DNA of 20,348 bases from a virus (IMGVR_UViG_2728369592_000008); one strand, 5' to 3'; numbered from the stretch's first letter, positions 1,445 to 19,109 are shown. The notes: generated by a model not told the origin, from the sequence alone. Translations and numbers: made by a program.

Positions 1445-1460
1445 TTCAAACATCTCCCCA

Positions 1461-3887: not shown

Positions 3888-3899
3888 CGGAGACTGAAA

Positions 3900-4733
3900 A
3901 TGAACATCGAAAAAAGCAGATTAATTTCTGAGGCCGCCCCTCATCTGAACGCCTCTCTGGGCACAATTAACGGTAATGAATTTGCCGCAATTGTCCCGGT
4001 TATTCCTGGTCATATCGGTGGGCGTGAAACCAATATTGTTAGCGCAAAAGCGTTACACAAAGCGTTGGGCGTGGGAAAAGACTTCTCTACATGGATCACT
4101 GATCGCATCTCTGAATATGACTTCACCATTGGGCACGATTACTCAGTCCATAAAACAATTTCCCCAAATTTGGGGAAAAGCCCGAATGGCGCGGCTTACA
4201 GCAAGATAAAGCACTCTGGCAGACCCGGCAAAGACTATCTGTTAAGTGTCGGAATGGCGAAAGAACTGGCAATGATCGAACGCAATGATCAGGGTCGCGC
4301 TATCCGCCGTTATTTCATCCAGTGCGAGGAAGAATTACAGCGTAGCGTGCCTGAAATCGCCGCCCGCTATCGTCGCCAGCTAAAAGCCCGTCTCAGTGCC
4401 GCAAACAACTTTAAGCCAATGTGCGATGCGCTGAATATGGCCCGTGCCGAGATGGGTAAAACGACGCAGCAACACCACTACACAAACGAGAGCAATATGA
4501 TTTCTCGTATCGTTCTTGGTGGGCTAACTGCTAAGCAGTGGGCGCGGATAAATGGCTATTCTGGCGAACCTCGCGACCATATGAACGCAGAACAGCTTGA
4601 GCACCTCTCATATCTCGAAAGCACCAATATCACGTTAATTGATATGGGCATGGAATATGAGCAGCGCAAAGGAGAACTCACCCGCCTGTCGCAACGCTGG
4701 CTCGCCAAGCGTCTGGAGGTGGTCAATGTCTAA
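3900..4733 (+). CDS. Phage antirepressor-like protein (AntA/KilAC-type DNA-binding domain), tentative
   Basis: 277 aa; segment DYLLSVGMAKELAMIERNDQGRAIRRYFIQCEEEL resembles the conserved core of phage antirepressor / Rha-like domains. Recognition by eye only. Confidence 0.5.
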   Translation: MNIEKSRLISEAAPHLNASLGTINGNEFAAIVPVIPGHIGGRETNIVSAKALHKALGVGKDFSTWITDRISEYDFTIGHDYSVHKTISPNLGKSPNGAAYSKIKHSGRPGKDYLLSVGMAKELAMIERNDQGRAIRRYFIQCEEELQRSVPEIAARYRRQLKARLSAANNFKPMCDALNMARAEMGKTTQQHHYTNESNMISRIVLGGLTAKQWARINGYSGEPRDHMNAEQLEHLSYLESTNITLIDMGMEYEQRKGELTRLSQRWLAKRLEVVNV

Positions 4734-4908
4734 GCCAACAGGAACACCACAACCACAAAAACGCTACAAAGATGCCCACGGAGCACTCGTTACTGTCGAA
4801 AGCGTGTCTCACAACCGAGTGACGTTTTATCGCGACGGGTATCAATCGCCATGCGTACAACCGCTGGCGCGTTTCATGAAGGAGTTCGCGGAGGTTAACA
4901 AATGCTAA
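4726..4908 (+). CDS. Small hypothetical protein (60 aa)
   Basis: ATG at 4726 preceded by GGAGGTGG (4714-4721); it is the in-frame internal start of the listed 4639-4908 ORF and overlaps the end of the upstream gene. Confidence 0.45.
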   Translation: MSKPTGTPQPQKRYKDAHGALVTVESVSHNRVTFYRDGYQSPCVQPLARFMKEFAEVNKC

Positions 4909-5969
4909 CCGTCCAGAAGAAGACATTTTCACTGGCTGGTATGTCGCCAAAATCCAGCAATATGACGGCAAAGTCAGGCATTAATACCGCAGATACAAGC
5001 AAAGTTTATCATTTGCTGGTGGTCGGAACGGATGCCTTAACCATATCAGAAATCTCGGGCGATGATATTAGCATTGAGAAGGTCAGCGGCTGCGCCAGAA
5101 AATTTCTGGTCGTAGATGATGTCTTCCGCTCGTGTAGTGACTCCACAAAAACATTCGTCCACGCGCGTGACGTTAACGAAATGAGCGCGATGTACTGTGC
5201 ATCTGGTGCTTCCAATAGCGAGTTTTCGGAGTCCATAAAAAAGAGCTTGCCGTTATGCGGCAACACGGTTTATGGTTATAAGGCACCTCATAAAACGGGT
5301 GCCGGGATTGGCGTCCTGGTAAATCGAATGGCGACATATGACGCGCCGAGCGTCTTTTTTTATGTCGTAGGTCTGACTCACCCATTTTTTGGGCGTTGGT
5401 GTATAATCCAGCGCCTTTGTCAATCAATGGTGGCTCAGGCAGGGGCTTCTTCGGAAGCGCCGGTATCCATTCGAGCCGGTTACGCCAACCCTGTCTGGGC
5501 TACCACCAGCGAAATTGGCGTTTCCGGTGGTAGCGTTACATGCTATCGAATGGAGGCTGCCACATGCTGGCTACTACCCCTACCCAAAAACCGCAATTTA
5601 TCTGGATTATCGCCGCAGTTCGCCGCGATTGCCCGACAATTACCGCCAAAATTCATCATATTGCTGCCGAGTCTGAACGCGATGCTCGCCGTTCTCTGGT
5701 GCGCGATCACGTCTGCTTTTTTGCTGGTCGTATCCGCATGGAGGTGGCTCATGATTAAAACCTACGATGTGCATATGGATCCCCTCGAACGCACAAGCCA
5801 GATCATCACACTGACAGAAGTGATTAACGACATTCTGGTGAGCAACTCTCCCTCACGAGACGAAAGACTGAAGGCGTTACTCGCGATATTGGATCTCGCC
5901 GTTCGTGACGTTCATTTCCTGCTGGAAGGTGGCGAAATGCCAGGAAAAACGGGGGCAACCAATGAATAA
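4902..5969 (+). CDS. Unresolved ORF (355 aa as read); possibly a fusion artefact or overprinted region, with a likely independent 72 aa gene at 5751-5969
   Basis: Start at 4902 has a good RBS (GGAGG 4890-4894) and the frame stays open for 355 codons, but the middle section has atypical Ser/Cys/Trp-rich composition. An in-frame ATG at 5751 has its own strong RBS (GGAGGTGG 5740-5747). Confidence 0.3.
5564..5758 (+). CDS. Small hypothetical protein (64 aa), alternative frame nested in the 4902-5969 ORF
   Basis: ATG 5564 with GGAGG at 5552-5556; protein-like composition ([15 protein letters not shown]); stop overlaps the ATG at 5751. Conflicts with the 4902-5969 reading; only one model can be fully right. 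Confidence 0.35.
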   Translation: MLATTPTQKPQFIWIIAAVRRDCPTITAKIHHIAAESERDARRSLVRDHVCFFAGRIRMEVAHD

Positions 5970-6156
5970 CTCAATTAATACCCCTCGCCTTACGTCCGCA
6001 CTTCAATTAATCGAGCAAGCAGCGGCTGTCCTGGTTGCTGTCAGTCTTTCGGCTGAAGAAATGGACGCTGCTGATGTCGTGGATGCGATTAAAGCGTGCT
6101 CATCTTTGGTTAACGATGCCCGTGCCGAGCTGGTAATTCTTGGGGGTGAAAAATGA
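5962..6156 (+). CDS. Small hypothetical protein (64 aa)
   Basis: ATG 5962 preceded by a G-rich RBS, overlaps upstream stop; part of a chain of coupled small ORFs. Confidence 0.45.
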   Translation: MNNSINTPRLTSALQLIEQAAAVLVAVSLSAEEMDAADVVDAIKACSSLVNDARAELVILGGEK

Positions 6157-6416
6157 ATATCAACTTAATTTATCGTCATCCGTGTGAGCTGGAAATTGAA
6201 TCATTGCTGGGGCGTGAAGAGCCATATCCAGACACATTCACTCCCGCAGATTGCGCGACTGAACGGCTTACCAGAGCGCGCACAGGTCTGGTTCATGTGA
6301 TGAATGAGATTGTTCCCTCGGTGGGAGGGGAACAGGCGACAGTAATCAATAGCTGGCTACAAAAAGTTACCTCCCTGATAGATATCGGTTTAATCGATGT
6401 GGAGAGTGCGAAATGA
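6153..6416 (+). CDS. Small hypothetical protein (87 aa)
   Basis: ATGA start/stop overlap with the upstream ORF. Confidence 0.5.
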   Translation: MNINLIYRHPCELEIESLLGREEPYPDTFTPADCATERLTRARTGLVHVMNEIVPSVGGEQATVINSWLQKVTSLIDIGLIDVESAK

Positions 6417-6634
6417 CCAACATCCAGCTCATTGAAGCGCAATGTCGCATCGAACAGGTTCAGACTGTTTTAGGGTTCTGGCTTGAAGGGGCCAGCCCCA
6501 GCAACAGAGACAAGTTAATGATTGGCGCGGTTATGTCACTGCTTAATGGCGTACCAGAAGCTATTCAGGAAGCGGACGAATTGTTGGGCAAATATGAGTT
6601 ACAGAATCATTCAGGCGAGGCGAAACATGAATAA
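6413..6634 (+). CDS. Small hypothetical protein (73 aa)
   Basis: ATGA start/stop overlap with the upstream ORF. Confidence 0.5.
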   Translation: MTNIQLIEAQCRIEQVQTVLGFWLEGASPSNRDKLMIGAVMSLLNGVPEAIQEADELLGKYELQNHSGEAKHE

Positions 6635-7229
6635 TTTCTTAACTTTCCATGCAGAAGCAACGCCTGACGGCGTAAACATCATGTACCGCAGCAACGATGG
6701 CATGACAGAACGCGTTGAGGCCATCTCATATATTGATGCCGTAAATCGTCTGGATGCCGGGGATTATGACGATAAACCAGATGAAGGTATGTCAATACAT
6801 CTCGCTATTGCCGATGGCGGCAACCAGGGATATTTCGATTACACATCACAGCATAACGTCATTATGTGGAGATGGCTGATCGCAACAGTATTCATGCTGG
6901 AAATGAGAGAGGAAAACGGCACTGTCAGCATCATTGATGATACTGGCAATCCTTCCGAAGTGGCTGTTTATTCCAACGGCATCGTCGCCATGCCGCTGTA
7001 TCCAGTAGCAGAGCGCCTCGCTATGGCAAACAACATTGAGGGCGCGATGATAGAACGTTTTGGCATCGAGTCTGGCACAGAACGCGCCATCATTTTCTAC
7101 AGAGCCATGATGGATGTGGAACAAGGAGCACTGACTCCATTTGGTCGTGAAACGCTTGCTGAACTTCACAACAGCTTTATAGCTGAACTGAATGAAAACG
7201 GCATGCCAGCGGAACCAGTGACGCACTGA
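6627..7229 (+). CDS. Hypothetical protein (200 aa)
   Basis: In-frame ATG at 6627 overlapping the previous stop; the listed 6522 start would overlap the upstream gene by ~110 nt and is less likely. Confidence 0.5.
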   Translation: MNNFLTFHAEATPDGVNIMYRSNDGMTERVEAISYIDAVNRLDAGDYDDKPDEGMSIHLAIADGGNQGYFDYTSQHNVIMWRWLIATVFMLEMREENGTVSIIDDTGNPSEVAVYSNGIVAMPLYPVAERLAMANNIEGAMIERFGIESGTERAIIFYRAMMDVEQGALTPFGRETLAELHNSFIAELNENGMPAEPVTH

Positions 7230-7239
7230 GGATGGAGCC

Positions 7240-7581
7240 ATGATTACTAAAAATTTCCGACTGAATGCGCTGGCAAATAAGTATGCGTCGGCACTGTATA
7301 ACCACATTACCTCCACCAGCGGCGGGGACTATTTCATGGTTGATGCGGACGGCGAGGCCGTCCGTGTGGAAATCGTCAATGGAGTAAAAGGCGTTCGCAG
7401 CCTGATCGATAGCTACACACTGGCAGCCATGAAAGTGTTCTACCCGCAGTGGGAAACCGTGGGGATCGAGCTTCTTGAACGTTGCGTCACTAAGGACGGA
7501 TTGACTGACGTCGGGCGTGAGATATGGCAAAGCATGGTTAATGACATGGGCGCAACTGTAGCGGGAGGTTCTCATGCGTGA
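7240..7581 (+). CDS. Hypothetical protein (113 aa)
   Basis: ORF with GGATGGAG RBS upstream; co-oriented with neighbours. Confidence 0.5.
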   Translation: MITKNFRLNALANKYASALYNHITSTSGGDYFMVDADGEAVRVEIVNGVKGVRSLIDSYTLAAMKVFYPQWETVGIELLERCVTKDGLTDVGREIWQSMVNDMGATVAGGSHA

Positions 7582-7945
7582 AAATGCAGAAATGGCGCTT
7601 AGCTCCGCAATCGGAGAGCAGGTGGCAAAGATTGCTGGTGCTGTGTGGATTCATAACCTTCATTCTACTGGTGAAGAGAAAATGGTAATTCAGACGCCAG
7701 AGGGACGCACCATTACTACATCTCTGAAGCCGTCAGATGTTTGTGATCTGATTTGCGCATTCATGTACCCAGCAATGAGGACTGTCCACGGCGATAAGTG
7801 GAAACTTGCGACAACCGCTGAATTTGATATGTGGCTAAACAATGATGGCATGCTGACTGATTACGGAATAACCAAGTGGCAGATGCTGGTTAGCCATATC
7901 GCAAACGCTATAGACCACGTGGGGTACGGTGATGCGAAACATTGA
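7574..7945 (+). CDS. Hypothetical protein (123 aa)
   Basis: ORF with GGGAGG RBS; overlaps neighbours at both ends. Confidence 0.5.
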   Translation: MRENAEMALSSAIGEQVAKIAGAVWIHNLHSTGEEKMVIQTPEGRTITTSLKPSDVCDLICAFMYPAMRTVHGDKWKLATTAEFDMWLNNDGMLTDYGITKWQMLVSHIANAIDHVGYGDAKH

Positions 7946-10688
7946 TCTTATCCGTCAGGTTATCAGTGCGTCTGAAAACAACTGGCCTCATGTGCTGGGC
8001 TGCCTGAACATAAATGTCCCTGACTCTCCGCGCCGTCATGCTCCCTGCCCTGCATGTGGGGGCAAAGATCGATTCCGGTTCGATGACAACGGGCGCGGTA
8101 GCTTCATCTGTAATCAGTGCGGCGCTGGTGATGGGCTGGATTTAATTAAACGCGTAAATAACTGCGACACAACAGAGGCGGCGCTTCTTGCCGCTGATGT
8201 TCTGGGTATTGATTACCGGACAACGGAAACACCAGAAGCCACCAGCCAGAAACGGGAACAACTGGAAACCGAGCGCCAGCGACGCGAACAGGAGCGCCTG
8301 AAAAGGGCAGAGAAGGACGAACAACAAAGACGGGATACGTTTTCCCGTCAGTTTGATGACATGCGCAGAAAGGCTGTAAACGGCAAATCTGATTATCTGG
8401 TTGCGAAAGGGGTAGGTGATTTTACATTCCCCGTGTTGCCCGATGGATCTCTGTTGCTGGCGCTGGTGGATAAATCCGGCGCAGTAACAGCAGCACAGAC
8501 TATTACCTCACATGGTGAAAAAAGACTCCTGACAGGTTCAGCAAAGCGGGGGGCATATCACGCCATAAACGCACCAGAAACAACACAGAGCATCTTAATC
8601 GCAGAAGGTCTGGCAACGGCATTATCTGCCCATTTAATTCGTCCAGAGGCGCTGACAGTGGCGGCGATTGATGCCGGGAACCTGTTATATGTCGCCCAGG
8701 TACTGCGGGATAAATTTCCTTCAGCACAAATCATCATTGCTGCGGATAACGACCACAGCGAAGGAAGACAAAACACGGGGAGAATAGCAGCAGAAAAAGC
8801 AGCTTTATCTGTTTCTGGATGGGTGGCATTACCCCCGACAGATCACAAAGCAGACTGGAATGATTACCACCAAAAACACGGCATTAAATGCGCCACAGAA
8901 GCGTTCAATAAGTCAATGTACCAACCACAGGGTAATGGCGTGAAACAGGAGCCACAGACCATTGAGGGAAGCGATTTTAAGGTTATGGATACCGACCCAC
9001 TGAAACCAAGAATAGAAAGCCGCGAGGATGGTATTTATTGGGTATCTCCGAGAGCTGACAGCCAGAGTGGAGAAATCATCAATAACGAAAGCTGGTTATG
9101 TTCTCCGTTAAGCGTTATCGGTACTGGCAGAGACGATAAAGACCAGTATCTCATTCTTCGCTGGCTGTCGTTTGGTTCTGAAACGCCGACAACCGCTGCC
9201 ATTCCACTGGCTGATATTGGTGAACGTGAAGGATGGCGCACACTTAAAGCTGGTGGGGTAAATGTCACGACCAAAAGCAGCCTCAGAGCAATACTGGCAG
9301 ACTGGCTACAACGCAGTGGCTCTCGTGAATTGTGGCGTGTTGCTCATGCCACTGGCTGGCAATGCGGAGCGTACATCATGCCTGATGGGGAAATCATCGG
9401 AACACCTGAAAATCCTGTGCTGTTCAGCGGGAGAAGCTCAGCCGCAGCCGGATATACCGTCTCAGGGAGCGCGAAAAGCTGGCGTGATAACGTGGCGCGT
9501 CTGGCCTTTGGTAACTATTCAATGATGACCGGGATCGGCGCAGCACTGGCAGCGCCATTGATTGGGCTGGTGGGCGCTGACGGGTTCGGCATTCATTTCT
9601 ATGAGCAGTCGAGCGCAGGTAAGACCACCACGGCAAACGTGGCGAGCAGCTTATACGGCAACCCTGATTTACTGCGGCTGACGTGGTACGGAACCGCGCT
9701 GGGGCTGGCAAATGAGGCCGCCGCCCACAATGACGGACTAATGCCGCTTGATGAAGTTGGTCAGGGCGCTGATCCTGTCAGCGTTTCACAGTCTGCCTAT
9801 GCGTTATTTAACGGTGTAGGGAAACTGCAAGGCGCTAAAGATGGTGGAAACCGGGATCTAAAACGCTGGCGTACAGTGGCAATCAGCACCGGAGAAATGG
9901 ATTTAGAAACATTTATCGCTACTTCCGGGCGAAAAACCAAAGCCGGGCAACTGGTGCGACTGCTGAATATTCCGTTGAGTAAAGCAGTACGCTTTCACGA
10001 TTACCAGAACGGAAAACAGCACGCAGACGCACTGAAAGACGCTTACCAGCATCACCACGGCGCGTCCGGGCGTGAGTGGATTAAATGGCTGGCACACCAC
10101 CAGCAACAGGCTATTAAAACCGTTCGTGATTGCGAAAGCAGATGGAGAAGCCTGATCCCATCCGATTATGGTGAGCAGGTTCACCGTGTAGCCGCGCGAT
10201 TTGCCATTCTAGAGGCCGCATTGTTGTTAGGCGAGGTTGTAACAGGCTGGGATGCTCAGACATGCCGTGATGCGATACAGCACAGCTATAACGCATGGTT
10301 GCGCGAGTTCGGCACAGGTAACAAAGAGCATCAGCAGATTATTGAACAAACGGAGGCATTTCTTAATGCCTATGGGCTTAGCCGTTTTGCACCATTTCCA
10401 TACAGCCCGGCAGATTTGCCCATCAAAGATTTAGCCGGATACCGTCAGCGTGGAGAACATGACGAAAGCCCAATGATTTTCTACACATTCCCGGCCACAT
10501 TTGAAAAGGAGATCGCATGTGGTTTCAACGCAAAACAGTTTGCTGAAGTGTTGAAAAAAGCCGGGATGCTAACCCCACCAAACAGCGGTCGTGGATACCA
10601 AAGAAAATCACCACGTATTCAGGGACGACAAATAAACGTTTATGTACTCAATTACCAGCCAGGAGATTATAACTCATCTGAAGAATGA
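7932..10688 (+). CDS. Phage/satellite primase-helicase (zinc-ribbon + Toprim primase + P-loop NTPase)
   Basis: ~918 aa. Cys-rich zinc-binding motif PCPACGGKDRFRFDDNGRGSFICNQCG; Toprim-like acidic motifs (IAEGLATALS, IIIAADNDHSEGRQNTG); Walker A SSAGKTT near nt 9610. Architecture as in P4 alpha-like replication proteins. ATG 7932 preferred over the GTG at 7929. Confidence 0.85.
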   Translation: MRNIDLIRQVISASENNWPHVLGCLNINVPDSPRRHAPCPACGGKDRFRFDDNGRGSFICNQCGAGDGLDLIKRVNNCDTTEAALLAADVLGIDYRTTETPEATSQKREQLETERQRREQERLKRAEKDEQQRRDTFSRQFDDMRRKAVNGKSDYLVAKGVGDFTFPVLPDGSLLLALVDKSGAVTAAQTITSHGEKRLLTGSAKRGAYHAINAPETTQSILIAEGLATALSAHLIRPEALTVAAIDAGNLLYVAQVLRDKFPSAQIIIAADNDHSEGRQNTGRIAAEKAALSVSGWVALPPTDHKADWNDYHQKHGIKCATEAFNKSMYQPQGNGVKQEPQTIEGSDFKVMDTDPLKPRIESREDGIYWVSPRADSQSGEIINNESWLCSPLSVIGTGRDDKDQYLILRWLSFGSETPTTAAIPLADIGEREGWRTLKAGGVNVTTKSSLRAILADWLQRSGSRELWRVAHATGWQCGAYIMPDGEIIGTPENPVLFSGRSSAAAGYTVSGSAKSWRDNVARLAFGNYSMMTGIGAALAAPLIGLVGADGFGIHFYEQSSAGKTTTANVASSLYGNPDLLRLTWYGTALGLANEAAAHNDGLMPLDEVGQGADPVSVSQSAYALFNGVGKLQGAKDGGNRDLKRWRTVAISTGEMDLETFIATSGRKTKAGQLVRLLNIPLSKAVRFHDYQNGKQHADALKDAYQHHHGASGREWIKWLAHHQQQAIKTVRDCESRWRSLIPSDYGEQVHRVAARFAILEAALLLGEVVTGWDAQTCRDAIQHSYNAWLREFGTGNKEHQQIIEQTEAFLNAYGLSRFAPFPYSPADLPIKDLAGYRQRGEHDESPMIFYTFPATFEKEIACGFNAKQFAEVLKKAGMLTPPNSGRGYQRKSPRIQGRQINVYVLNYQPGDYNSSEE

Positions 10689-10710
10689 GCTTCTTCATGT
10701 GCGTAGAAAA

Positions 10711-10828
10711 GGTGTTGGTTCAGTTGGTTCAGTTGGTTCAATTTGTAAAGTGTATTGTTTTATAAGGATTTTATTCTTTTTATTGAACCAACACTGAACC
10801 AACAACACGGTATTTTGAACCAACACAA
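10711..10828 (+). repeat. Iteron cluster, putative origin of replication (three direct GTTGGTTCA repeats, AT-rich spacer, three inverted copies)
   Basis: GGTGTTGGTTCAGTTGGTTCAGTTGGTTCA at 10711-10740, AT-rich 10751-10781, then TTGAACCAACA-type repeats at 10782-10828; immediately downstream of the primase stop. Confidence 0.65.
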
Positions 10829-10874
10829 TGTGACTGAATTGATGCGCACAACACCTGGCTGGCATCAGAGAGTG

Positions 10875-10950
10875 TTTTACGAGACTTTCGTAAAATCCTG
10901 TGTACAAGGGCGTGACGTTTTTGAAAGTGAGCACTACGAAATTTTCGTAG
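10875..10950 (+). promoter_or_regulatory. Two palindromic sites sharing a TACGAAA/TTTCGTA half-site
   Basis: TTTTACGA-N5-TCGTAAAA at 10875-10895 and the perfect palindrome CTACGAAA-T-TTTCGTAG at 10934-10950. Confidence 0.4.
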
Positions 10951-11143
10951 TTCAAAAAACAGCCTCTGAGAAGTTGTTATGCCTGTTCAGCAAACCATCC
11001 GCATAGCTGATCGCGAATCAAATTACCAATGGAGCCAGAAGCAAGGGCAGAACTGAAAAGCGCCTGCCGTGAAGAGTAATGCGACACCATAAATATAGTT
11101 TTTAGAGTCCATAAAAAACCTGTCAAAACCTGACACACAGAAC

Positions 11144-11177
11144 GATGCCACCAGCTACTGAGCGGTGGCATTTTTTT
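11144..11177 (+). terminator. Rho-independent terminator closing the primase transcription unit
   Basis: Stem TGCCACC (11146-11152) / GGTGGCA (11164-11170) followed by TTTTTTT (11171-11177). Confidence 0.65.
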
Positions 11178-11273
11178 GTGCTATTTGTTTCATATTTTGC
11201 AATTACTATGATGAATATTGCGATTTGTGAAACTATAATAACTGTTGTTTTATACAGTTCTAAGGGGGGCGTT

Positions 11274-11435
11274 ATGGCTATTTCAGTAAAGCCGGTATTG
11301 ATAAGTGAGAAGCAAATGGAAGCGATAAAGAAAATTCAGGAAGAGCAGCGTAAAAAATCAGGAATTGGAGTAGCGCCAACTCTGCATGAAATTGCACGAG
11401 GGTTAATAGATAAGGCGCTGGCAGGCTGTATGTGA
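11274..11435 (+). CDS. Small hypothetical protein (53 aa), first gene of the cargo operon
   Basis: ATG 11274 preceded by AAGGGGGG; the listed longer ORF (from 11145) would read through the terminator and is rejected. Confidence 0.45.
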   Translation: MAISVKPVLISEKQMEAIKKIQEEQRKKSGIGVAPTLHEIARGLIDKALAGCM

Positions 11436-11451
11436 AAATGGATGGCATCGC

Positions 11452-11913
11452 ATGGAACTAAAATTTATTGATAACCCTGTGCGATTACAGGCCTTTCTTA
11501 ACGAGCCAGGCAATACCGAAAATATTGTTGAGCCGGGGCACACGTACTACATCAAGCCTGATGCGGTATATCTCGGCATCTACGAAGGATTGGTGCTGGC
11601 TGGCGTTCATGAAGTGCGTAACTTCTGGCATAGCATTGTTGAATGCCATGCGGTGTACGACCCCGGATTCCGTGGTGAATATGCACTGCAAGGGCATCGA
11701 TTATTCTGCAAATGGCTTCTCGAAAACTCACCATTCCTTAACAGCATTACCATGGTTCCTGACACCACCAAATACGGACGGGCAATTATCCGTTTGCTTG
11801 GCGCTACCCGTGTTGGTCACCTTGATGATGCTTATATCAGATGTGGTAAACCCGTCGGCGTAACGCTTTATCAGTTAACTCGGCAACAATATAAGGAATT
11901 CAGCGAATGTTAA
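11452..11913 (+). CDS. Hypothetical protein (153 aa); possibly a P22 gp14-like virion protein by position
   Basis: ORF directly upstream of, and overlapping, the next gene; the call is by position and size only. Confidence 0.5.
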   Translation: MELKFIDNPVRLQAFLNEPGNTENIVEPGHTYYIKPDAVYLGIYEGLVLAGVHEVRNFWHSIVECHAVYDPGFRGEYALQGHRLFCKWLLENSPFLNSITMVPDTTKYGRAIIRLLGATRVGHLDDAYIRCGKPVGVTLYQLTRQQYKEFSEC

Positions 11914-12584
11914 TTACCCACATAGCTCATAAACATCTCAATCGTGCCGTATACGAAAAAGGCGGTGATGGTGGTGCCTCTAAAGCTCAGGCGAAGGCCC
12001 AGCAGCAGGCAATTGATTTGCAGCGCGAGCAGTGGAATACGGTGATGAATAATCTCAAGCCGTATGCAGAAGTCGGATTGCCTGCTTTACAACAACTACA
12101 AGGACTGATGACTCTGGAAGGGCAGAATAAAGCCGCGAATGATTTCTTTGGTTCTGGTTTATATAAAACACAGGCAGATCAGGCCCGTTATCAGAACCTT
12201 GTCTCAGCAGAAGCTACCGGGGGGCTTGGCTCAACAGCTACCAGTAACCAGTTATCTTCCATTGCGCCCATGCTTTATAACAATTGGCTTAGTGGGCAAA
12301 TGCAAAATTATGGAAACCTGCTAAATGTCGGGATGAATGCGGCATCAGGGCAGGCAACAGCAGGGCAAAACTACGCCAATAATACCGGGCAACTCTTGCA
12401 GGGGCTTGGCGCTATTCGTGCAGGTCAGGCGCAGCAGCCATCCAGTCTTGCGCGTGGTATTGGTGGGGCGGCATCAGGCGCTTTAGCGGGTGCGCAACTT
12501 GGTTCCGTTGTTCCGGGTATAGGTAATGTCGCCGGGGCTATTGGTGGTGGGCTTATTGGTCTTGTTGGGGGGCTTGGATTCTAA
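11907..12584 (+). CDS. Gly/Gln-rich protein with C-terminal glycine-zipper hydrophobic tail; possibly P22 gp7-like ejection protein
   Basis: 225 aa; RBS AAGGAA; C-terminus GIGGAASGALAGAQLGSVVPGIGNVAGAIGGGLIGLVGGLGF; size and position match the first ejection protein of P22-like phages (from memory). Confidence 0.5.
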   Translation: MLITHIAHKHLNRAVYEKGGDGGASKAQAKAQQQAIDLQREQWNTVMNNLKPYAEVGLPALQQLQGLMTLEGQNKAANDFFGSGLYKTQADQARYQNLVSAEATGGLGSTATSNQLSSIAPMLYNNWLSGQMQNYGNLLNVGMNAASGQATAGQNYANNTGQLLQGLGAIRAGQAQQPSSLARGIGGAASGALAGAQLGSVVPGIGNVAGAIGGGLIGLVGGLGF

Positions 12585-14005
12585 TGGCGACATGGCAACT
12601 TGGCGGGCTGCCTAGCATGGCACCGCAAAATGATAATGCTCCTCGTTCTTCCGTTCCTCAGCCTGTGCAGTATCAGCAGCAGCCAAACGTAGGTTTAATG
12701 GCGCTACAGGGGCTAAGAGGCGTTGCTGAGATTAATCAGCAGGCACGTCAACAACAGCGTAAAGCAGAGTTTCAGAAAGCATATGCCGGGGCTTTTGAGT
12801 CTGGAGACAGAAACAAAATGCGCAGTCTTATTTCTGAGTATCCAGAAGAATTTGAAAGCGTTCAGAAAGGGATGGGCTTTATTGATGACGACCAGAGAAA
12901 TTCTATTGGTCATCTTGCGACTAGTGCTCAAATCGCATCTTCGCTCGGAACTGGGGCATTTGGAAAATTCATAGCAGATAACGAAGATGAAATGCGTCGC
13001 TTGGGAATTTCTCCTGAGTCTGTTGCCGAAATGCATGTTAATGATCCACAGGGATTCCAGCGGCTTGCTGGTAGTATGGCACTGTTTTCTCTCGGTCATG
13101 AGAAGTATTTCGATATCAAAGATCAAATGGAAGGTCGGGATATTGAGCGTGGCAAGTTGGCAGAAACAATCCGCAGCAATCAGGCTGGCGAAGCACTTCA
13201 GGCGAGAGGGCAGGATATTAGCCGAGCAAATGCGTTAACGTCAGCATATGCACCAACAGCAGCAATGCAGAATTACAATCAGTACGCTCAAATGTTAAAG
13301 GAGGATCCAGAGGGGGCGGCGGCATTTGCGGCAGCGGCTGGAATTAATACAAACGCCAAAAAATTAATGAGTGTTAGAGAAAACGATGATGGCACTGTCA
13401 CAAAATACTACACAGACGGAAGTGAAGAGCAGGGAAAACTAAACCAGCCAATATCTGGAGATGGGTTTCGTCCAATAGCTTTGCCAACAGCCCAAAAGAT
13501 CATGGAAAAGTCGCCAGAAGGGGCTAAAAAAGCTGCTGGATTTGCATACAGGGTTAGGGATGCTCTTGATTCAATAGATACACTGAAAGACCAGCTTAGC
13601 CCACAGCGAGTGGCGATCATTAATAATGCTTTGGGTAATGGGACGCTGGCTAACTTAACGCTCAGCCCAACAGAGCAGCAATACGTTGTTAATGCTAATG
13701 ACGCAATAATGGCAATACTCCGTCAGGAAACAGGGGCAGCTATCGTACCTGCTGAAATGTCAAAATATTATCAAATGTATTTCCCTCAGCCTGGCGACTC
13801 CACAAAAACCATTGATACCAAGCGCCGGAAGATGGAAAACCAGTTCAATTCGCTGAAAGCTGCTTCTGGTCGAGCTTATGATGCTTTGCGGGTTATTTCA
13901 GCAGTTGACAGAGGAACTTCTTCTTCGTCGCAGACATTGCCGCAATCTGAGCAGGTATCACAGCCAGCAGCCAGCAGTAACTTTTCTTCACTATGGGGTG
14001 ATTAA
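12584..14005 (+). CDS. Hypothetical protein (473 aa); possibly P22 gp20-like DNA-transfer/ejection protein
   Basis: ATG overlaps upstream stop (TAATGG); size and order consistent with the middle ejection protein of P22-like phages. Confidence 0.5.
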   Translation: MATWQLGGLPSMAPQNDNAPRSSVPQPVQYQQQPNVGLMALQGLRGVAEINQQARQQQRKAEFQKAYAGAFESGDRNKMRSLISEYPEEFESVQKGMGFIDDDQRNSIGHLATSAQIASSLGTGAFGKFIADNEDEMRRLGISPESVAEMHVNDPQGFQRLAGSMALFSLGHEKYFDIKDQMEGRDIERGKLAETIRSNQAGEALQARGQDISRANALTSAYAPTAAMQNYNQYAQMLKEDPEGAAAFAAAAGINTNAKKLMSVRENDDGTVTKYYTDGSEEQGKLNQPISGDGFRPIALPTAQKIMEKSPEGAKKAAGFAYRVRDALDSIDTLKDQLSPQRVAIINNALGNGTLANLTLSPTEQQYVVNANDAIMAILRQETGAAIVPAEMSKYYQMYFPQPGDSTKTIDTKRRKMENQFNSLKAASGRAYDALRVISAVDRGTSSSSQTLPQSEQVSQPAASSNFSSLWGD

Positions 14006-16110
14006 TGGCTAAAGCATGGAAAGATGTTATCGCCTCTCCACAGTATCAGGCGTTAGCACCAGAACAAAAAGCGCAGGCTCAGGAGCAATACTTCAATGAA
14101 GTCGTTGCCCCGCAAGCCGGAGAAAGTGTAGAGCAGGCTAAGCAGGCTTTTTATGCTGCCTATCCACTACCATCAACGAATGAAATAGACCGAGCCCAAT
14201 CAGCAACTCAAAATATTCAACATACATCATCTGATAATTCTCTTGCGTCAGGGTATGCAAAGTTAGCTACTCAGCAAAGAGAGGGGCTTGAGCGTTCAGC
14301 AGAACAGGGAGCCAGCCTTGGGGCTGCGATGCGCGATGCTATAACAGGCGAAAGCCGAATGACTCCAGAGATGGAGAGACTGCAAAATGTCGACCTTGCC
14401 CCAGAGTTAACCTCACTCAGCATGGATGCTCTAAAAGCTCGATGGTCTCAACTTTTCGGCTCTGACGCATCTCAGGAAAAGATTCTTCAGAGCATGGGAG
14501 CGAAATTAAGGCAGGATGAGAAGGGTAACACTATCGTTTCCCTGCCATCCGGTGATTATGCTCTGAACAAGCCGGGTTTATCGCCGCAAGACGTGGCATC
14601 GTTTCTGGCTAATGCGCTGGCGTTTACACCAGCGGGCAGGGCCGGAACGGTGCTGGGGGCCATAGGGAAATCAGCAGCTACAGATTTAGCACTACAGGGA
14701 GCCACCAGCCTCGCTGGTGGAGAAGATATTGATCCGTTACAAACGGTAATTTCTGCTGGCATTGGTGGTATTGGTAAGGGGCTGGAAAATACAGCGAGTG
14801 CGGTTTCGAGGGCTGTTCGTGGTGATATGTCGCCTGAAGCAAAGGCTGCTGTCGACTTTGCATCGGAAAGAAATCTGCCGTTAATGACCAGTGACATGCT
14901 GAAAGATAAAACCTTTATGCAGAGTCAGGCTCAGACATTAGGCGAAAGAGTTCCTTTTTTTGGAACCGGTAAGAATCGGCTGAATCAACAACAAGCACGA
15001 GAAAATTTAGTCAGAACATTTAGCGATGGTCTGGGTGGCATTTCTGATAAACAGCTTTATGAATCTGCGACTAAAGGGCAACAAAAATTCATTGAGGCAG
15101 CAGGAAAGCGATATAACCGCATAATTGACGCTATGGGGGATACCCCTGTCGATCTCTCAAACACGGTAAAAGCTATCGACAATCAGATTGCTGTGTTAAG
15201 CCGCCCGGGTAAATCTCAGGATAGAGCCGCGGTAAAAGTCTTGCAGCAATTTAAAGACGATATCACCAGCGGACCAAATGACCTGCGTCTGGCGAGGGAA
15301 AACAGAACCGATCTTCGAAAGCGGTTTATGGCGTCATCTGACACTGTTGATAAAGATACGCTCCAGAAAGCCAGCGATATTATCTACAAGGCATATACGG
15401 CGGATATGAAAAAAGCCGTAGCCAAAAATCTTGGAGCAGACGAAGCCATTAATATGGCAAGGGTTGATCGCTCATGGTCTAAATTCAATGACATGATGGG
15501 AAGAACGCGCGTTCAAAAGGCAATAGCCAGCGGCAAGGCCACGCCTGAGGATGTAACAAAACTCGTTTTTAGCCAAAGCCCATCAGAACGTTCTCAGCTT
15601 TACAGGCTTCTGGATGACAATGGTAGGCAAAACGCACGAGCAGCCATAGTTCAGAATGCTGTAGATAAGGCGACTGATCCGTCTGGAAATATCAGTGTTG
15701 AGAAGTTTATTAATGCGTTACACCGGAACAGGAAGCAATCAGCAACTTTCTTTAAAGGCGTACATGGAAAGGAACTGGACGGCGTTATTAAATACCTCAA
15801 CGATACAAGACACGCGGCAAAAGCGAACGTTCAAAACTTAAATGGTCAGCAGCTTTATGGATTGTTAGTTGGTGGTGGCATCATAAACGCAGCAGTATTA
15901 GCGGGGATGCTAAAAACGGCTGCGTTTGTTGTTCCTGCTGCTGGTGCCGTAGGCGGAGCCGCGAAGGCATACGAAAGCCCTGTTATACGAAATGCCTTGT
16001 TACGTTTGGCAAATACGCCAAAAGGTAGCACAGCATATGACAGAGCGATCAGTACGGTCACACAATCGCTCACCAGAGTCGCACAGGCATCACAAAAAGA
16101 AGCTCAATAA
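14005..16110 (+). CDS. Hypothetical protein (701 aa) with C-terminal hydrophobic hairpin; possibly P22 gp16-like DNA-transfer/ejection protein
   Basis: ATG overlaps upstream stop; Ala/Gln/Lys-rich; hydrophobic stretch LLVGGGIINAAVLAGMLKTAAFVVPAAGAVGGAA near the C-terminus. Confidence 0.5.
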   Translation: MAKAWKDVIASPQYQALAPEQKAQAQEQYFNEVVAPQAGESVEQAKQAFYAAYPLPSTNEIDRAQSATQNIQHTSSDNSLASGYAKLATQQREGLERSAEQGASLGAAMRDAITGESRMTPEMERLQNVDLAPELTSLSMDALKARWSQLFGSDASQEKILQSMGAKLRQDEKGNTIVSLPSGDYALNKPGLSPQDVASFLANALAFTPAGRAGTVLGAIGKSAATDLALQGATSLAGGEDIDPLQTVISAGIGGIGKGLENTASAVSRAVRGDMSPEAKAAVDFASERNLPLMTSDMLKDKTFMQSQAQTLGERVPFFGTGKNRLNQQQARENLVRTFSDGLGGISDKQLYESATKGQQKFIEAAGKRYNRIIDAMGDTPVDLSNTVKAIDNQIAVLSRPGKSQDRAAVKVLQQFKDDITSGPNDLRLARENRTDLRKRFMASSDTVDKDTLQKASDIIYKAYTADMKKAVAKNLGADEAINMARVDRSWSKFNDMMGRTRVQKAIASGKATPEDVTKLVFSQSPSERSQLYRLLDDNGRQNARAAIVQNAVDKATDPSGNISVEKFINALHRNRKQSATFFKGVHGKELDGVIKYLNDTRHAAKANVQNLNGQQLYGLLVGGGIINAAVLAGMLKTAAFVVPAAGAVGGAAKAYESPVIRNALLRLANTPKGSTAYDRAISTVTQSLTRVAQASQKEAQ

Positions 16111-16128
16111 CTGGTAGCCATGGATGGC

Positions 16129-16743
16129 TTAGATATCTCTGCTGTCTCCATTAGGAAATAAAAGATAATATGGATTTGCCTTTCTTGCTCTCCTTGCTTC
16201 ACCTGGATACCTGTTAGTCAGTAGTTTGCATAATGAGCAGAGAACAACACTCAAGAAAATTCCGAATGAGAAGATCAATATCTCACCAAAAATCAATGGC
16301 GATATTAAATTTTCAGGATTTAATGATAAGTCAATGTTAAAAACATATTGAGCAATACCAGTAAGTATCAATAATATAATCCCTATGGAATACATTGCTG
16401 TTTCCCAAACATCAGACAGTCTATTTTTGAATTGTTCGCTGGAGTAGTAGTTTGTTATAAAGTCAGAAAAATCACTCTCATATGCATCATCTTTAGGTGA
16501 TGTTAGAAATCCTCTGTCTCTCCATACCTTCTCCCAATTAGTCGATTCTTTTTTTAAGGAAAAATAAATATGTATTGCCAAAAGGATAGCCAAAATTGGT
16601 GTTAGCTCTAAAAAATAGAATGTTATGGAATAAATAATACTGCCATGTTCAAACTCATCTGGGACTATCATGTATGCACAAAAATAAATTGAAAAGTACA
16701 CCATGCAGATAGTTAGCAATTCTTTAGTATCTTTTCTGCTCAC
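16129..16743 (-). CDS. AT-rich polytopic inner-membrane protein (about four predicted TM helices); candidate superinfection-exclusion or defence effector
   Basis: 204 aa, GTG start with AAGGGGG RBS; hydrophobic segments at roughly aa 9-27, 36-61, 116-135, 147-176; visibly lower GC than flanking genes; convergent with the upstream operon. Confidence 0.55.
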   Translation of the reverse strand: MSRKDTKELLTICMVYFSIYFCAYMIVPDEFEHGSIIYSITFYFLELTPILAILLAIHIYFSLKKESTNWEKVWRDRGFLTSPKDDAYESDFSDFITNYYSSEQFKNRLSDVWETAMYSIGIILLILTGIAQYVFNIDLSLNPENLISPLIFGEILIFSFGIFLSVVLCSLCKLLTNRYPGEARRARKANPYYLLFPNGDSRDI

Positions 16744-16960
16744 ACCAACCCCCTTTAGCGTTGTTTAGAATGGCAATCATCATATATCCAAGACATGGCA
16801 TTTGGTACATAGCTTGGGTCGGGATTTCAAATCCGATCCCCGTTGATGGGGCCGTTACAGTACGCGCATATCCGCTTTATGTGAAACAGGAAGATTTTTC
16901 TGATATCACTGCCACAGCAAAACACCAATTTCGTGACCAGTACGCGCGCGAGGGGTATCA

Positions 16961-16979
16961 GTTGCAAAAATTTTGCAAC
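16961..16979. promoter_or_regulatory. Perfect 19 bp palindrome GTTGCAAAA-A-TTTTGCAAC flanked by GACCAGTACGC direct repeats
   Basis: Palindrome at 16961-16979; GACCAGTACGC at 16934-16944 and 16987-16997; related CAGTACGCGC motifs near 16858 and 17225. Confidence 0.45.
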
Positions 16980-17612
16980 TACGTCCGACCAGTACGCACA
17001 CGATGGCGGGGGATACCATGAAACTGTTCTCTACACGAGACAGAGTGGTGGTGATGTGTTGATTATCGGCGTATATGCGCACAGGACGCGCTATGACGAT
17101 GTTTTATGCGGGTACACCAATCACATGTATCTGATGTGATAAATCGTGTTACATGACATCTCATGTTGTGCTGGTGGTTATCACGACGTTCTGAATCTGG
17201 CCTTTGCCTGATATTTTGCGACAAGTACGCGCGCGTAGCATCGAAATTATCGGATGGCGTATGCTGCTGGCAATATGAAGACCGATAGTATTAACCGAAA
17301 AGCGATTAAGGAGTGCCAACTTTTCAGTAGAGAAACTAGCCAGCATAGGAAAATGTAGAAATTACCCAATTAATAGGTAAAAGTTATTGACACAGCCTGT
17401 AGTGGATAACGATATGAATAAAAACCACATATAGTGGTTTTTCGTGAGTGATGATAGTATCTATGTTAGTTTCCTAAGTAACTGTGCATTGACATGTGGA
17501 TAACTTCGGATAGAGTTACAGGCAACCGAGCCCGATCCTCTGTTTCTCCGCCGCCGATTTCAGGCATGTGAGTTTCACGGTCGGGCCTTTTATTATCTTT
17601 TGTTTCGCCACT

Positions 17613-18590
17613 ATGATTGCCGCAAAGCCTCATAAGGACTATCACGAATTGCTAGGATTGCTACTTGAACGTGGCATGATTATCAATGATCGAAATCGTG
17701 CGATACGTAAGCTGTCGCAGGTTGGATATTATCGATTGTCAGGTTTTTGGTACCCATCAAGAATTATTGCGACAACAGATAAAGGTCTTTCGTACAGAAC
17801 AGACCGATTTCTTGCTGGTACCAGTTTCGAGAAGACGTACGATCTATATCTTTTTGACAAAAAACTGCGTCTTTTGATGATTGATGCTATCGAAAGAATA
17901 GAGATTCATGTTCGTTCAGTCATCGCGCATGAGGTTGGTCGCAATGATCCACTTGCCTACATGTCATCAAAATACATTAATCCAAAATTCTCATCTGCCT
18001 TCGAGCATTGGGTGTATAAGCAAAAAGTAAAATTAGACGAAAGCAGAGATGACTGTATTGAATGGCATCGAAGCCAAGGCAAGGAGATTCCATTTTGGGT
18101 GGCGGTGGAGACCTGGGATTTTGGTCAGATGTCTAAATATTATGCGATGCTTAATGGTCATATGCAGGGGAAAATTATACGTCGTTTTGGCATTGATAAT
18201 AAGCAGACATTTGCAAAATGGTTGAAGTGCCTTAATCTCATAAGGAATCGTTGCGCTCACCATTCCAGAATATGGAATAGAAAGCATCCCCGAGTTCCAG
18301 TACCGGATAATGAATACTTTGACGGACTTAATCTCCATCCAGAGAGTTGCGAGAGGATTTTTAGCGCGATCTGTATTATCTGGTACTTAGTTAAACGACT
18401 TGGTCCGGGATCAACATGGCTTCGGCAAATTGCAGACCTTATTGACTCTAAACCAAATGTTCCCGGATGTGGATATGATTCAATGGGTTTACCTGCTAAA
18501 GGATTCCCACGAGAGAGATTCTCTCAGGACTTAGGTTTTGTTATCGCCGACAACGACCCTGTAGCTGAAGGGCGGAAAGGGAGCGATTGA
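17613..18590 (+). CDS. Abi_2-family abortive infection protein (AbiD/AbiF-like)
   Basis: Signature stretches match the family: KPHKDYHELLGLLLERGMIINDRNRAIRKLSQVGYYRLSGFWYP, LYLFDKKLRLLMIDAIERIEIHVRSVIAHEV, LIRNRCAHHSRIWNR. ATG 17613 preferred; the listed 17568 start adds 15 hydrophobic residues. Confidence 0.8.
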   Translation: MIAAKPHKDYHELLGLLLERGMIINDRNRAIRKLSQVGYYRLSGFWYPSRIIATTDKGLSYRTDRFLAGTSFEKTYDLYLFDKKLRLLMIDAIERIEIHVRSVIAHEVGRNDPLAYMSSKYINPKFSSAFEHWVYKQKVKLDESRDDCIEWHRSQGKEIPFWVAVETWDFGQMSKYYAMLNGHMQGKIIRRFGIDNKQTFAKWLKCLNLIRNRCAHHSRIWNRKHPRVPVPDNEYFDGLNLHPESCERIFSAICIIWYLVKRLGPGSTWLRQIADLIDSKPNVPGCGYDSMGLPAKGFPRERFSQDLGFVIADNDPVAEGRKGSD

Positions 18591-18619
18591 GCGATAAATA
18601 TCATTTATACACTGATCAA

Positions 18620-19060
18620 TTACTGAAGCAGCGTATTGATTCTTTTAATATTGTTACCCTGACGCTTCCACGCGCTGTAAATGTCTTTATCCCACGCTTT
18701 ACCAGCTTTTGTTTGGTAGCCTGCTTCATTGAGCCGTTCCGCTATCACACGCCCATTATCAAATCCCTGTCGGATGGTATCGGCAATGATCTTTATAACT
18801 GCCGTTTCGTTATATGGCTTTGGTGGGATGTTCGGCTTTCCGGCAATAAGCGACGCAGCGGCTTTTTCCATGCGCTCCACCAGCCCAAGCATTCGTGAAT
18901 CAATAGACTTTTCCGGCTGTCCCAGCTTCATGCGAATCGCATCAACAAGCCAGGAGGTTTTATCCCCTCCAGAAGCGAGAACAGACCGATTAAACTCATC
19001 CTGCAATTCAGATGGGATGCGGAACGCGACCAGATTAGATTTGCTCATTGCAAAGACCAT
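18620..19060 (-). CDS. Ribbon-helix-helix DNA-binding protein with C-terminal recombinase-type (catalytic-domain-less) DNA-binding module
   Basis: 146 aa; N-terminal SNLVAFRIPSELQDEFNRSVLASGGDKTSWLVDAIRMKL fits an RHH fold; C-terminal IADTIRQGFDNGRVIAERLNEAGYQTKAGKAWDKDIYSAWKRQ resembles the DNA-binding 'recombinase' domain of large serine recombinases. No clear RBS; start could be 19048. Confidence 0.55.
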   Translation of the reverse strand: MVFAMSKSNLVAFRIPSELQDEFNRSVLASGGDKTSWLVDAIRMKLGQPEKSIDSRMLGLVERMEKAAASLIAGKPNIPPKPYNETAVIKIIADTIRQGFDNGRVIAERLNEAGYQTKAGKAWDKDIYSAWKRQGNNIKRINTLLQ

Positions 19061-19077
19061 ATCAGTGAGTAATATCC

Positions 19078-19109
19078 ATACAGTATACCACTGTATAACA
19101 CTGTTATAC
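19078..19109. promoter_or_regulatory. Overlapping palindromes upstream of the RHH gene (candidate autoregulatory operators)
   Basis: ATACAGT-ATACC-ACTGTAT (19078-19096) and GTATAACA-C-TGTTATAC (19093-19109). Confidence 0.45.

Follow-up and report, generated by a model that had tools for sequence, protein, structure and literature searches.

A divergent SieA-like membrane protein gene as probable accessory cargo of an EcCIMP1-like satellite island in Escherichia coli

Introduction

SieA is among the oldest known superinfection-exclusion functions, and the mode of action of the family is still unsettled. According to a recent study by Leavitt et al. (2024; PMC10883804), SieA of phage P22 (type A; Hofer 1995) is sufficient by itself for exclusion, and P22 escapes from it only through changes in gp16 and gp20, in the C-terminal part of each. 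Types A and B, which are 24% identical, give indistinguishable exclusion (PMC10883804). P22 SieA has also been reported to be active in E. coli, with CUS-3 excluded at least 10^8-fold. Direct interference with the gp20/gp16 conduit and occlusion of a host factor, for example YajC, have been proposed as modes of action (PMC10883804). The same study singled out a cytoplasmic motif near the C-terminus of SieA, FxRYPxEAxxFNK, and described an extra N-terminal transmembrane (TM) helix, beyond three core TMs, in types B and C. SieA proteins of E. coli and Salmonella were of type A or B only, whereas type C was confined to Providencia, Morganella and Proteus; type C is ~25% identical to types A and B and carries N- and C-terminal extensions of ~40 and ~10 aa (PMC10883804).

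In E. coli MP1, the PICI EcCIMP1 is induced and mobilised by Kapi1, a P22-like phage (Pick, Stadel & Raivio 2025, PMC11773190). Kapi1 falls in a cluster with P22 and Sf101 and has genes for DNA transfer and ejection proteins. EcCIMP1 has a part in superinfection immunity against this phage, which it restricts only when lysogens are superinfected, and no known defence system was found in it (PMC11773190).

Here we describe a gene from a sequence of 20,348 nucleotides (IMGVR_UViG_2728369592_000008), referred to below as the window. The gene had been noted, from the sequence alone, as a strongly AT-rich gene for a four-helix membrane protein and a candidate for exclusion of phages. Comparison with P22-like prophages and with EcCIMP1 points to a distant member of the SieA family, carried by a satellite island.

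Results

An AT-rich gene for a predicted four-helix membrane protein

The minus-strand reading frame is intact and uninterrupted over 204 codons, from a GTG at 16743-16741 to a TAA at 16131-16129. The GTG start is backed by the alignment of orthologues, in which M1 is invariant and E8 nearly invariant, and it is preceded by a strong Shine-Dalgarno (SD) sequence that sits in the flank common to all cassette variants (Table 1). A stricter promoter scan of the upstream region returned nothing; a relaxed scan gave one candidate with a poor -35, the -10 of which ends 35 nt before the start codon, and no convincing promoter was found overall. P22 sieA is weakly transcribed (PMC10883804), and the weak predicted expression signals of the window gene would be in line with such low transcription. 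A search of 16000-17700 against Rfam returned no RNA family.

Table 1. Positions of the SieA-like gene and of neighbouring features in the window.
Feature	Position	Strand	Remarks
P22-type gp16 ejection-protein gene	14005..16110	+	701 aa; PHROG 770 and 29864
Inverted repeat AGCCAT-GG-ATGGCT	16116..16129	.	left cassette boundary, between convergent stops
SieA-family gene	16129..16743	-	204 aa; ORF and translation, homology, topology
Conserved non-coding block upstream of the SieA-like gene	16744..17245	.	common to all island variants
Shine-Dalgarno AAGGGGG	16755-16749	-	5 nt before GTG; read from sequence
Weak sigma-70-like promoter candidate, GTACCA-18 nt spacer-TATGAT	16779..16808	-	relaxed scan

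The gene has a GC content of 32.8%, the window as a whole one of 47.2%; among all 615-nt frames of the window, the lowest value belongs to the one that begins at 16120, which lies ~3.4 sd under the mean. The AT bias extends to all three codon positions (GC1/2/3 of 0.34/0.34/0.30, against 0.58/0.45/0.41 in the adjacent gp16 gene). The original prediction had taken this bias as a sign of separate horizontal acquisition. However, sieA genes of other elements show the same trait relative to their own gp16 genes: 33.7% vs 49.9% in P22, 36.3% vs 47.1% in the E. coli HS prophage HS1, 38.0% vs 50.0% in Citrobacter and 38.9% vs 49.6% in Morganella. Each of the compared sieA genes is thus 10-16 GC points under the adjacent gp16. 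Low GC is a general trait of sieA genes and not peculiar to this locus; because all of them are AT-rich, composition alone is weak evidence of separate acquisition.

Hydropathy analysis delimited four hydrophobic segments in the product (~9-27, 36-61, 115-135 and 148-173). An AlphaFold2 (AF2) model built with 14 homologues (pLDDT 76.9, pTM 0.60) placed long helices at 3-30, 36-65, 105-134 and 149-176, with shorter ones within loop 62-114 and in the C-tail. The K+R counts of the N-tail, loop 1, loop 2, loop 3 and C-tail (3/0/8/0/6) predict an N-in/C-in topology, in which the loops on the periplasmic side, two in number, are very short. The protein would be expected to lie in the inner membrane. 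The predicted layout consists of three core TM helices and one extra N-terminal TM, the arrangement known from types B and C. The four-helix architecture first proposed, for a gene convergent with an ejection-like operon, was therefore upheld by hydropathy, charge distribution and AF2 alike.

Within the clade formed by the protein and its closest homologues (see below), 9 of the 27 residues in the predicted cytoplasmic loop 88-114 are invariant, as are 8 of the 15 in the predicted cytoplasmic C-tail 174-188, and the least conserved region is the predicted periplasmic loop 136-147. This clustering of cytoplasmic invariants, together with the variation of the periplasmic loop, suggests that an effector surface in the cytoplasm or close to the membrane may be conserved, with an outer face that varies. 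The pattern points to sites for mutations that may part the mechanism of SieA from its specificity. A Foldseek comparison of the AF2 model with BFVD and PDB gave no match with E<1, so that the fold evidence is neutral on the relationship to SieA, and a profile search of PDB sequences found no relative.

Homology to SieA

PHROG 7745 ('superinfection exclusion SieA-like') matches residues 91-186 of the protein (E=4.4e-4). In BLASTP comparisons, the protein was 29% identical to P22 SieA (NC_002371) over 108 aa (E=8e-8) and 34% identical to the type B SieA of HS1 over 118 aa (E=2e-9), the latter being its best pairwise match among functionally tested SieA proteins. Full-length identity to the tested SieA proteins is just 17-21%, and the pairwise match is limited to the C-terminal two-thirds. 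With hhalign, the profile of the protein's own clade aligned with a profile of types A and B and distant relatives at 99.6% probability (E=2.6e-24, 130 columns), and an HMM of types A and B and distant relatives, built without any clade member, gave the ORF a score of 80.7 bits. HMMER, run exhaustively against 1.84 billion representatives, retrieved 43 proteins at E<=1e-3, nearly all of them 160-200 aa long and aligned over the same C-terminal core.

Two signatures are shared with SieA, YSSExFxNRxSD (also written YSSExxxNRxSD) and NRYPGEAxxxxK. The first reads YSSEQFKNRLSD in the window protein and FSPERFENRITD in P22 SieA; the second reads NRYPGEARRARK and GRYPGEANGFNK, respectively, and corresponds to the cytoplasmic motif of Leavitt et al. 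When this motif, FxRYPxEAxxFNK, is aligned with TNRYPGEARRARK at 176-188, R, Y, P, E, A and K match (6/9), and F1, F11 and N12 are replaced. In the RYPGEA core, R147, P149 and A152 are invariant and Y148 is nearly so across the alignment of types A and B and their relatives (A6), and R178 and P180-A183 are invariant in the alignment of the protein's own clade (A5). From these sequence comparisons, we regard the homology of the window protein to SieA as secure.

Scans of the protein against Pfam-A, NCBIfam and PADLOC yielded nothing above threshold. P22 SieA also scores nothing, and because the authentic protein is missed too, the silence of the curated libraries carries no weight. Defence finders miss the window gene, and it is labelled 'hypothetical' in every annotated E. 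coli copy among those listed. A tblastn search of 50,697 phage genomes with the protein gave no match.

The window protein and P22 SieA are homologous over the cytoplasmic loop, the last two TMs and the C-tail, and have S-x-E-x-F-x-N-R-x-x-D and RYPGEA in common. Both genes are strongly AT-rich and convergent with gene 16 at a distance of ~20 nt (18 nt in the window, where the stop of gp16 is at 16110, and 22 nt in P22). In contrast, full-length identity is ~17%; the window protein is 40 aa longer, with the extra N-terminal TM and ~9 extra C-terminal residues; and the C-terminal motif ends in RRARK instead of the NGFNK of P22. Unlike P22 sieA, the window gene is not in a P22-like prophage and has no adjacent mnt, arc, ant or tailspike gene. 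SieA of HS1, likewise from E. coli, resembles the window protein in having four TMs with an extra N-terminal helix, and both elements integrate at thrW; it differs in its full-length identity of ~18%, in its position in a different clade of the neighbour-joining (NJ) tree, and in that HS1 is a complete P22-like prophage.

A SieA lineage apart from types A and B

The closest relatives are few: a Citrobacter freundii protein (50% identity), one metagenomic sequence (~40%), and proteins of Morganella morganii, Providencia spp. and Proteus at 31-35% identity and ~94% coverage. The proteins in the corresponding slot of Citrobacter, Morganella, Providencia and Proteus can be aligned with the window protein over the full length (50% identity for Citrobacter, 31-32% for Morganella and Providencia, E=4e-33). 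They share with it the four-TM layout, the motifs WR(D/E)RG, YYSS..KNR.SDA and TNRYPGEARRAR, and a position adjacent to gp16. In the NJ tree, E. coli and Citrobacter form a branch that is a deep sister lineage of the Morganella/Providencia/Proteus group, and the combined clade stands well apart from types A and B, at 17-21% full-length identity.

By its host range, the Morganella/Providencia/Proteus sister group is probably the type C of Leavitt et al. The extensions of the window protein are ~31 aa at the N-terminus and ~9 aa at the C-terminus. A second Morganella/Proteus lineage (P0022-like), 36% identical to type B, has a ~42-aa N-terminal extension and an F..(F/Y)NK motif and fits parts of the type C description better. 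Be it type C or otherwise, the window protein, judged by its sequence, represents a SieA lineage unreported for E. coli. No clade member turned up when 185,579 species-representative genomes were scanned, first with the clade alignment and again with the back-translated TNRYPGEARRAR motif. The clade is rare, as judged from the empty result of both scans, which give no taxonomy.

The Citrobacter orthologue lies in a complete P22-like prophage, convergent with gp16; mnt and a small ORF precede it on its own strand, and arc, ant and the tailspike gene lie beyond. Orthologues from Morganella, Providencia, Proteus/'Shigella sp. FC1655' and two metagenomic contigs also occupy the canonical sieA slot of P22-like prophages. 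With the window included, the clade member adjoins gp16 in 7 of the 8 contexts examined. In the eighth, it follows a cI-type repressor in a lambdoid prophage, which is a classic lysogen-expressed position. The proposal that the gene sits where P22-like phages carry sieA is thus supported, with distant SieA homology in addition; conservation beside phage genes extends across genera.

gp16 belongs to the presumed kind of SieA target, and its gene serves as the syntenic anchor of sieA genes. The window gp16 is 76% identical in amino acids to the gp16 beside the Citrobacter orthologue, which indicates that gp16 and the slot gene moved as a module. It is also 94% identical, over 633 aa, to the gp16 of a CUS-3-like prophage in E. 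coli S88. Upstream of gp16 are P22-type gp20, gp7 and gp14 genes (Pfam Inj_translocase, 5.7e-58; P22_gp7, 1.9e-72).

An EcCIMP1-like carrier island

The window is located between proA/tRNA-Thr and the pao/yagU region of E. coli. Its genes encode an integrase, an AlpA-type regulator, an antirepressor, an Ash-like protein, a TOPRIM/DUF927 primase, gp14/gp7/gp20/gp16, the SieA-like protein, Abi_2 and PerC. The window annotation contains no capsid, portal, terminase, tailspike or lysis gene, and remnants of mnt, arc, ant, orf59a and the tailspike gene, sought in the window, were absent, as was gene 9. Positions 108-12744 (12.6 kb), which reach from int to where gp20 begins, are 97.8% identical to EcCIMP1 (NZ_CP139039.1). 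The two islands have in common the proA/tRNA-Thr site, the AlpA-antirepressor-Ash-DUF927 primase-E-protein-PerC layout and a conserved non-coding block. On gene content and sequence identity, the carrier is an EcCIMP1-like PICI, that is, a phage satellite, and not a P22-like prophage. A search for an exact att repeat (direct, >=12 nt) shared by the tRNA end and the window's right end found none.

Agreement with EcCIMP1 is lost precisely across the C-terminus of gp20, gp16 and the slot that follows gp16, and similarity resumes in the non-coding block at 16816-17297 with 96% identity. The gp16 of EcCIMP1 is a different protein (no BLASTP match at E<=1e-5) of 906 aa with a lytic transglycosylase domain. 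It is followed in the slot by a gene for a 232-aa lipoprotein instead of a SieA homologue, and EcCIMP1 has no Abi_2 gene. The non-coding block is present in ~595 E. coli genomes and contains five same-strand CAGTACGCGC repeats in 16858-17232 and a perfect palindrome at 16960-16980; the part upstream of the SieA-like gene (Table 1) presumably holds a regulatory region.

Exchange of cargo in the slot downstream of gp16

In two sister islands, L012 and L013, the sequence is near-identical to that of the window as far as the inverted repeat on one side and matches it as far as the shared SD/GTG on the other. Between these boundaries lie unrelated ORFs, which encode a four-TM protein of ~116 aa and a signal-peptide protein of 132 aa. 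The inverted repeat is kept in both islands, with the unrelated ORFs abutting it. It forms a weak hairpin of about -9 kcal/mol without a T-run, and a terminator scan between gp16 and the SieA-like gene found none. The 3' flank of gp16 is alike (96-100%) whatever cassette follows, the exchange boundaries coincide with start and stop codons, and the cargo ORFs use one SD/start context. The separate acquisition that had been proposed is correct, and it is supported chiefly by this precise exchange of the cassette between flanks that are identical in sister islands; base composition, from which it had been drawn, counts for little.

Of 5,426 complete E. coli genomes, 352 contained both flanks in a search with the two flanks joined, and the slot in them falls into three size classes (~615, 354 and 445 bp). 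The SieA-like gene is present in 103 E. coli genomes, always at >=99% identity and matched over >=80% of its length in 102, and these copies are 0-5 nt apart. The 116-aa cargo has a counterpart, 89% identical, in the corresponding slot of the CUS-3-like P22-type prophage in E. coli S88. Because this prophage has both the 89% identical cargo and the 94% identical gp16, satellites and their probable helpers, as far as sequences tell, draw on one pool of gp16-linked cargo. With the EcCIMP1 lipoprotein, at least four unrelated types of slot cargo were seen, all of them predicted envelope proteins.

An independent position of the Abi_2 gene

The Abi_2/AbiD gene lies 824 bp from the SieA-like gene on the opposite strand, in divergent orientation. 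Two further islands, L015 at thrW and L016, which has a different integrase and lies between yicC and yicG, have the same SieA-like gene with 0-1 nt differences and are without Abi_2, gp14 and gp7. Conservation between the window and these islands ends at ~17245, before Abi_2; Abi_2 therefore appears to occupy a second, independent variable slot. In L012 and L013, an Abi gene is present together with unrelated slot cargo, and the clade members in the P22-like prophages examined have no Abi neighbour. Joint action with Abi_2, which had been suggested from proximity, was rejected, since L015 and L016 keep the SieA-like gene without Abi_2 and co-occurrence is not conserved.

Discussion

We propose, with a probability of roughly 70%, that the gene encodes a divergent SieA-family protein which is accessory cargo of an EcCIMP1-like PICI and blocks DNA delivery by P22-like phages at the inner membrane. 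Homology, predicted topology, synteny, the behaviour of the cassette and the identity of the carrier come from the sequences compared here; the exclusion phenotype, specificity, membrane localisation and expression assigned to the protein are read across from SieA proteins already characterised. In keeping with the proposal, types A and B exclude alike despite 24% identity, P22 SieA is active in E. coli against CUS-3, the island gp16 closely resembles a CUS-3-like gp16, and EcCIMP1 is mobilised by a P22-like phage and contributes to superinfection immunity. The resident island would make the protein at a low level, and the protein, its N- and C-termini cytoplasmic, would span the inner membrane four times. 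When a P22-like podophage has adsorbed and released its ejection proteins, the gp20/gp16 conduit would be stopped from passing DNA across the inner membrane, either through direct contact with the conduit or through occlusion of a host factor. Adsorption would be unaffected, and unrelated phages would not be excluded. The candidate exclusion protein of the original prediction is thus the best-supported explanation, by virtue of SieA homology. The accompanying idea that it works with the ejection-like proteins needs to be turned round: by analogy with P22, SieA would act against incoming gp16 and gp20, not with the resident E-proteins. With this gene, the SieA family gains a carrier of a new kind, namely a satellite parasitic on P22-like phages. 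Against exclusion as the function count the low full-length identity to tested SieA proteins (17-21%), the restriction of the match to the C-terminal two-thirds, the three replaced motif positions and the failure of both scans to yield a convincing promoter. It is also not self-evident what adaptive value a satellite would gain by excluding its own helper type, and EcCIMP1, the only tested relative of the island, is without the SieA-like gene.

We consider it unlikely that the SieA homologue has been re-purposed for the satellite cycle and, in place of protecting the host or in addition to it, tells particles with helper-type ejection proteins from those with island-type ones. It may, for example, let island-transducing particles in but keep out the helper and phages related to it, or stop island particles from superinfecting cells that already have the island. 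The island does have its own gp14/gp7/gp20/gp16 and lacks genes for capsid, portal, terminase and tailspike; gp16 and the slot move together as a module; escape of P22 from SieA maps to the C-terminal regions of gp16 and gp20 (PMC10883804); and EcCIMP1 restricts Kapi1 solely when lysogens are superinfected (PMC11773190). However, the constant 3' flank of gp16 (96-100%) means that gp16 and slot cargo do not co-vary, and an ordinary CUS-3-like prophage has a gp16 with 94% identity to the island protein. Alternatively, the gene may be a hitch-hiking remnant without current function, brought in by gp20C-gp16-sieA recombination from a P22-like prophage. The stretch in which the island differs from EcCIMP1 comprises precisely the C-terminus of gp20, gp16 and the slot, as a single such recombination event would leave it, the promoter signals are weak, and copies at >=99% identity offer too little variation for showing purifying selection within E. 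coli. We nevertheless find a remnant distinctly improbable: no copy among those examined is disrupted (four compared in full differ by 0-1 nt, and 102 of the 103 genomes match over >=80%), the gene occurs in islands with different integrases and integration sites, the slot keeps the shared SD and start, always with an intact envelope-protein ORF, and the cytoplasmic motifs are conserved across genera.

Two other explanations are very hard to sustain. As a membrane effector or sensor partner of Abi_2/AbiD in a two-gene abortive-infection system, the protein would have in its favour only the proximity of divergent genes 824 bp apart, whereas islands with the gene and no Abi_2 (L015, L016), islands with an Abi gene and other cargo (L012, L013) and prophage orthologues without an Abi neighbour all speak for independence; moreover, P22 SieA suffices by itself (PMC10883804). 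That the gene might encode a housekeeping transporter, or a holin- or toxin-type small membrane protein unrelated to exclusion, is scarcely credible. Matches to membrane families in Pfam and NCBIfam (MnhB, E=0.018, and similar ones) were sub-threshold and composition-driven, no curated family was matched at threshold, and PDB contained no relative by sequence or fold. All homologues with an examined context are in a prophage or satellite, and the absence of the clade from the 185,579 species-representative genomes is incompatible with a housekeeping role.

Beyond a divergent SieA acting in exclusion, the slot as a whole can be read more boldly: the position downstream of gp16 in EcCIMP1-family satellites may be a dedicated hotspot for anti-phage envelope cargo and the source of the superinfection immunity of EcCIMP1. 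We regard this as doubtful. In its most novel version, the satellite SieA would be paired with the island's own ejection proteins, in which case helper-type phages or other satellites would be excluded and entry of the island's own particles controlled. The slot cargo nonetheless provides a concrete and testable class of candidates for the unexplained superinfection immunity of EcCIMP1-like PICIs, and the locus gains in interest if this cargo explains the immunity of EcCIMP1 or if the satellite SieA and its own ejection proteins form a pair. The slot resembles the P4/P2 hotspots and moron slots in that unrelated cargo is swapped between conserved flanks and that a second variable slot holds an Abi gene in some variants. 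It differs from them in that the boundaries are the start and stop codons themselves, and in that the four cargo types are all small envelope proteins.

Implied exchange of the gp16 module and cargo of the slot

Compared with EcCIMP1 (L021), the PICI of E. coli MP1, the window showed 97.8% identity as far as the start of gp20 but differed completely across the C-terminus of gp20, gp16 and the slot (window 12745-16815). A CUS-3-like prophage in E. coli S88 encodes a gp16 that shares 94% identity with the one in the window. Taken together, the divergence from EcCIMP1 and the match to the S88 gp16 imply that modules have been swapped between satellites and P22-like prophages.

The slot occupied by the SieA-like gene carries other cargo in the sister islands L012 and L013 and in EcCIMP1 (see table). 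None of these alternative products showed similarity to SieA by BLASTP or HMM, and PADLOC gave no match for the slot cargo of L012 or L013; they may be further exclusion proteins. One member of the SieA-like clade, P0047 (L011:7001-7600), is encoded in a lambdoid prophage 13 nt 3' of a cI-type S24 repressor gene, not beside gp16, and shares ~30-36% identity with the window protein, varying with the alignment. Its position next to the repressor gene rather than gp16 indicates that the family occupies more than one lysogen-expressed slot.

Features of the window and of related islands and prophages
Feature	Location	Strand	Remarks
isrK	window 5283-5360	+	Rfam, 67 bits
C4 antisense RNA	window 5423-5510	+	Rfam, 79.5 bits
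~116-aa four-TM protein	L012:7730-8080	-	same slot as SieA-like gene
S88 prophage counterpart of the ~116-aa protein	L014:9300-9629	-	89% identical; same slot as SieA-like gene
132-aa signal-peptide protein	L013:6449-6847	-	same slot as SieA-like gene
232-aa lipoprotein	L021:12632-13330 (EcCIMP1)	-	LLAGC lipobox; same slot as SieA-like gene
CAGTACGCGC repeats	16858-17232	+	5 copies on one strand, none with more than one mismatch; spacing 80/52/92/141
Perfect palindrome AGTTGCAAAA-A-TTTTGCAACT	16960-16980		same non-coding block as the repeats
Second variable slot	window ~17245-19100		content differs among island variants
Abi_2/AbiD gene	window 17568-18590		in second variable slot

Ejection-protein genes and gene annotation

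P22-type gp14, gp7, gp20 and gp16 (window 11452-16110, plus strand) are the sole virion genes of the PICI, and the set is reduced to gp20 and gp16 in the variants L013, L015 and L016. In EcCIMP1, the ejection-type genes have been named only as 'DNA transfer' and possible morphogenesis genes (PMC11773190); in the literature searched, we found no discussion of satellites providing their own ejection proteins.

In RefSeq, the island gp16 is called a partial pseudogene in several genomes (L001:16206-18021, L012:5606-7421), whereas the gp16 ORF of the window is intact (701 codons). The annotation of one genome places the start of the SieA-like gene further upstream, giving 218 aa (L016:14001-14657). 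Both the pseudogene labels and the 218-aa start look like annotation artefacts. A precomputed Pfam label, PF26849.1, is attached to the database records of some relatives (P0022, P0048 and P0050) and was absent from all our Pfam-A scan results, including that of P0048 at E<=10; it may represent a recent SieA-type family.

Small RNAs, second variable slot and repeats

The isrK and C4 RNAs fall within the region of an annotated 'ash family protein' ORF, 3' of the antirepressor gene, an arrangement that resembles the immI antisense control module of the P1/P7 type.

Besides Abi_2/AbiD, the second variable slot of the window holds a 146-aa ORF on the minus strand. In L015 and L016 the slot is instead filled by small hypothetical ORFs, and another Abi allele is found in L012 and L013.

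The CAGTACGCGC array lies in the non-coding block separating the SieA-like gene from Abi_2; elsewhere in the window, over 20 kb, just two matches of similar quality were found. The block looks iteron-like and is a candidate origin, packaging site or set of regulator sites. It is kept in ~595 E. coli genomes, EcCIMP1 among them.
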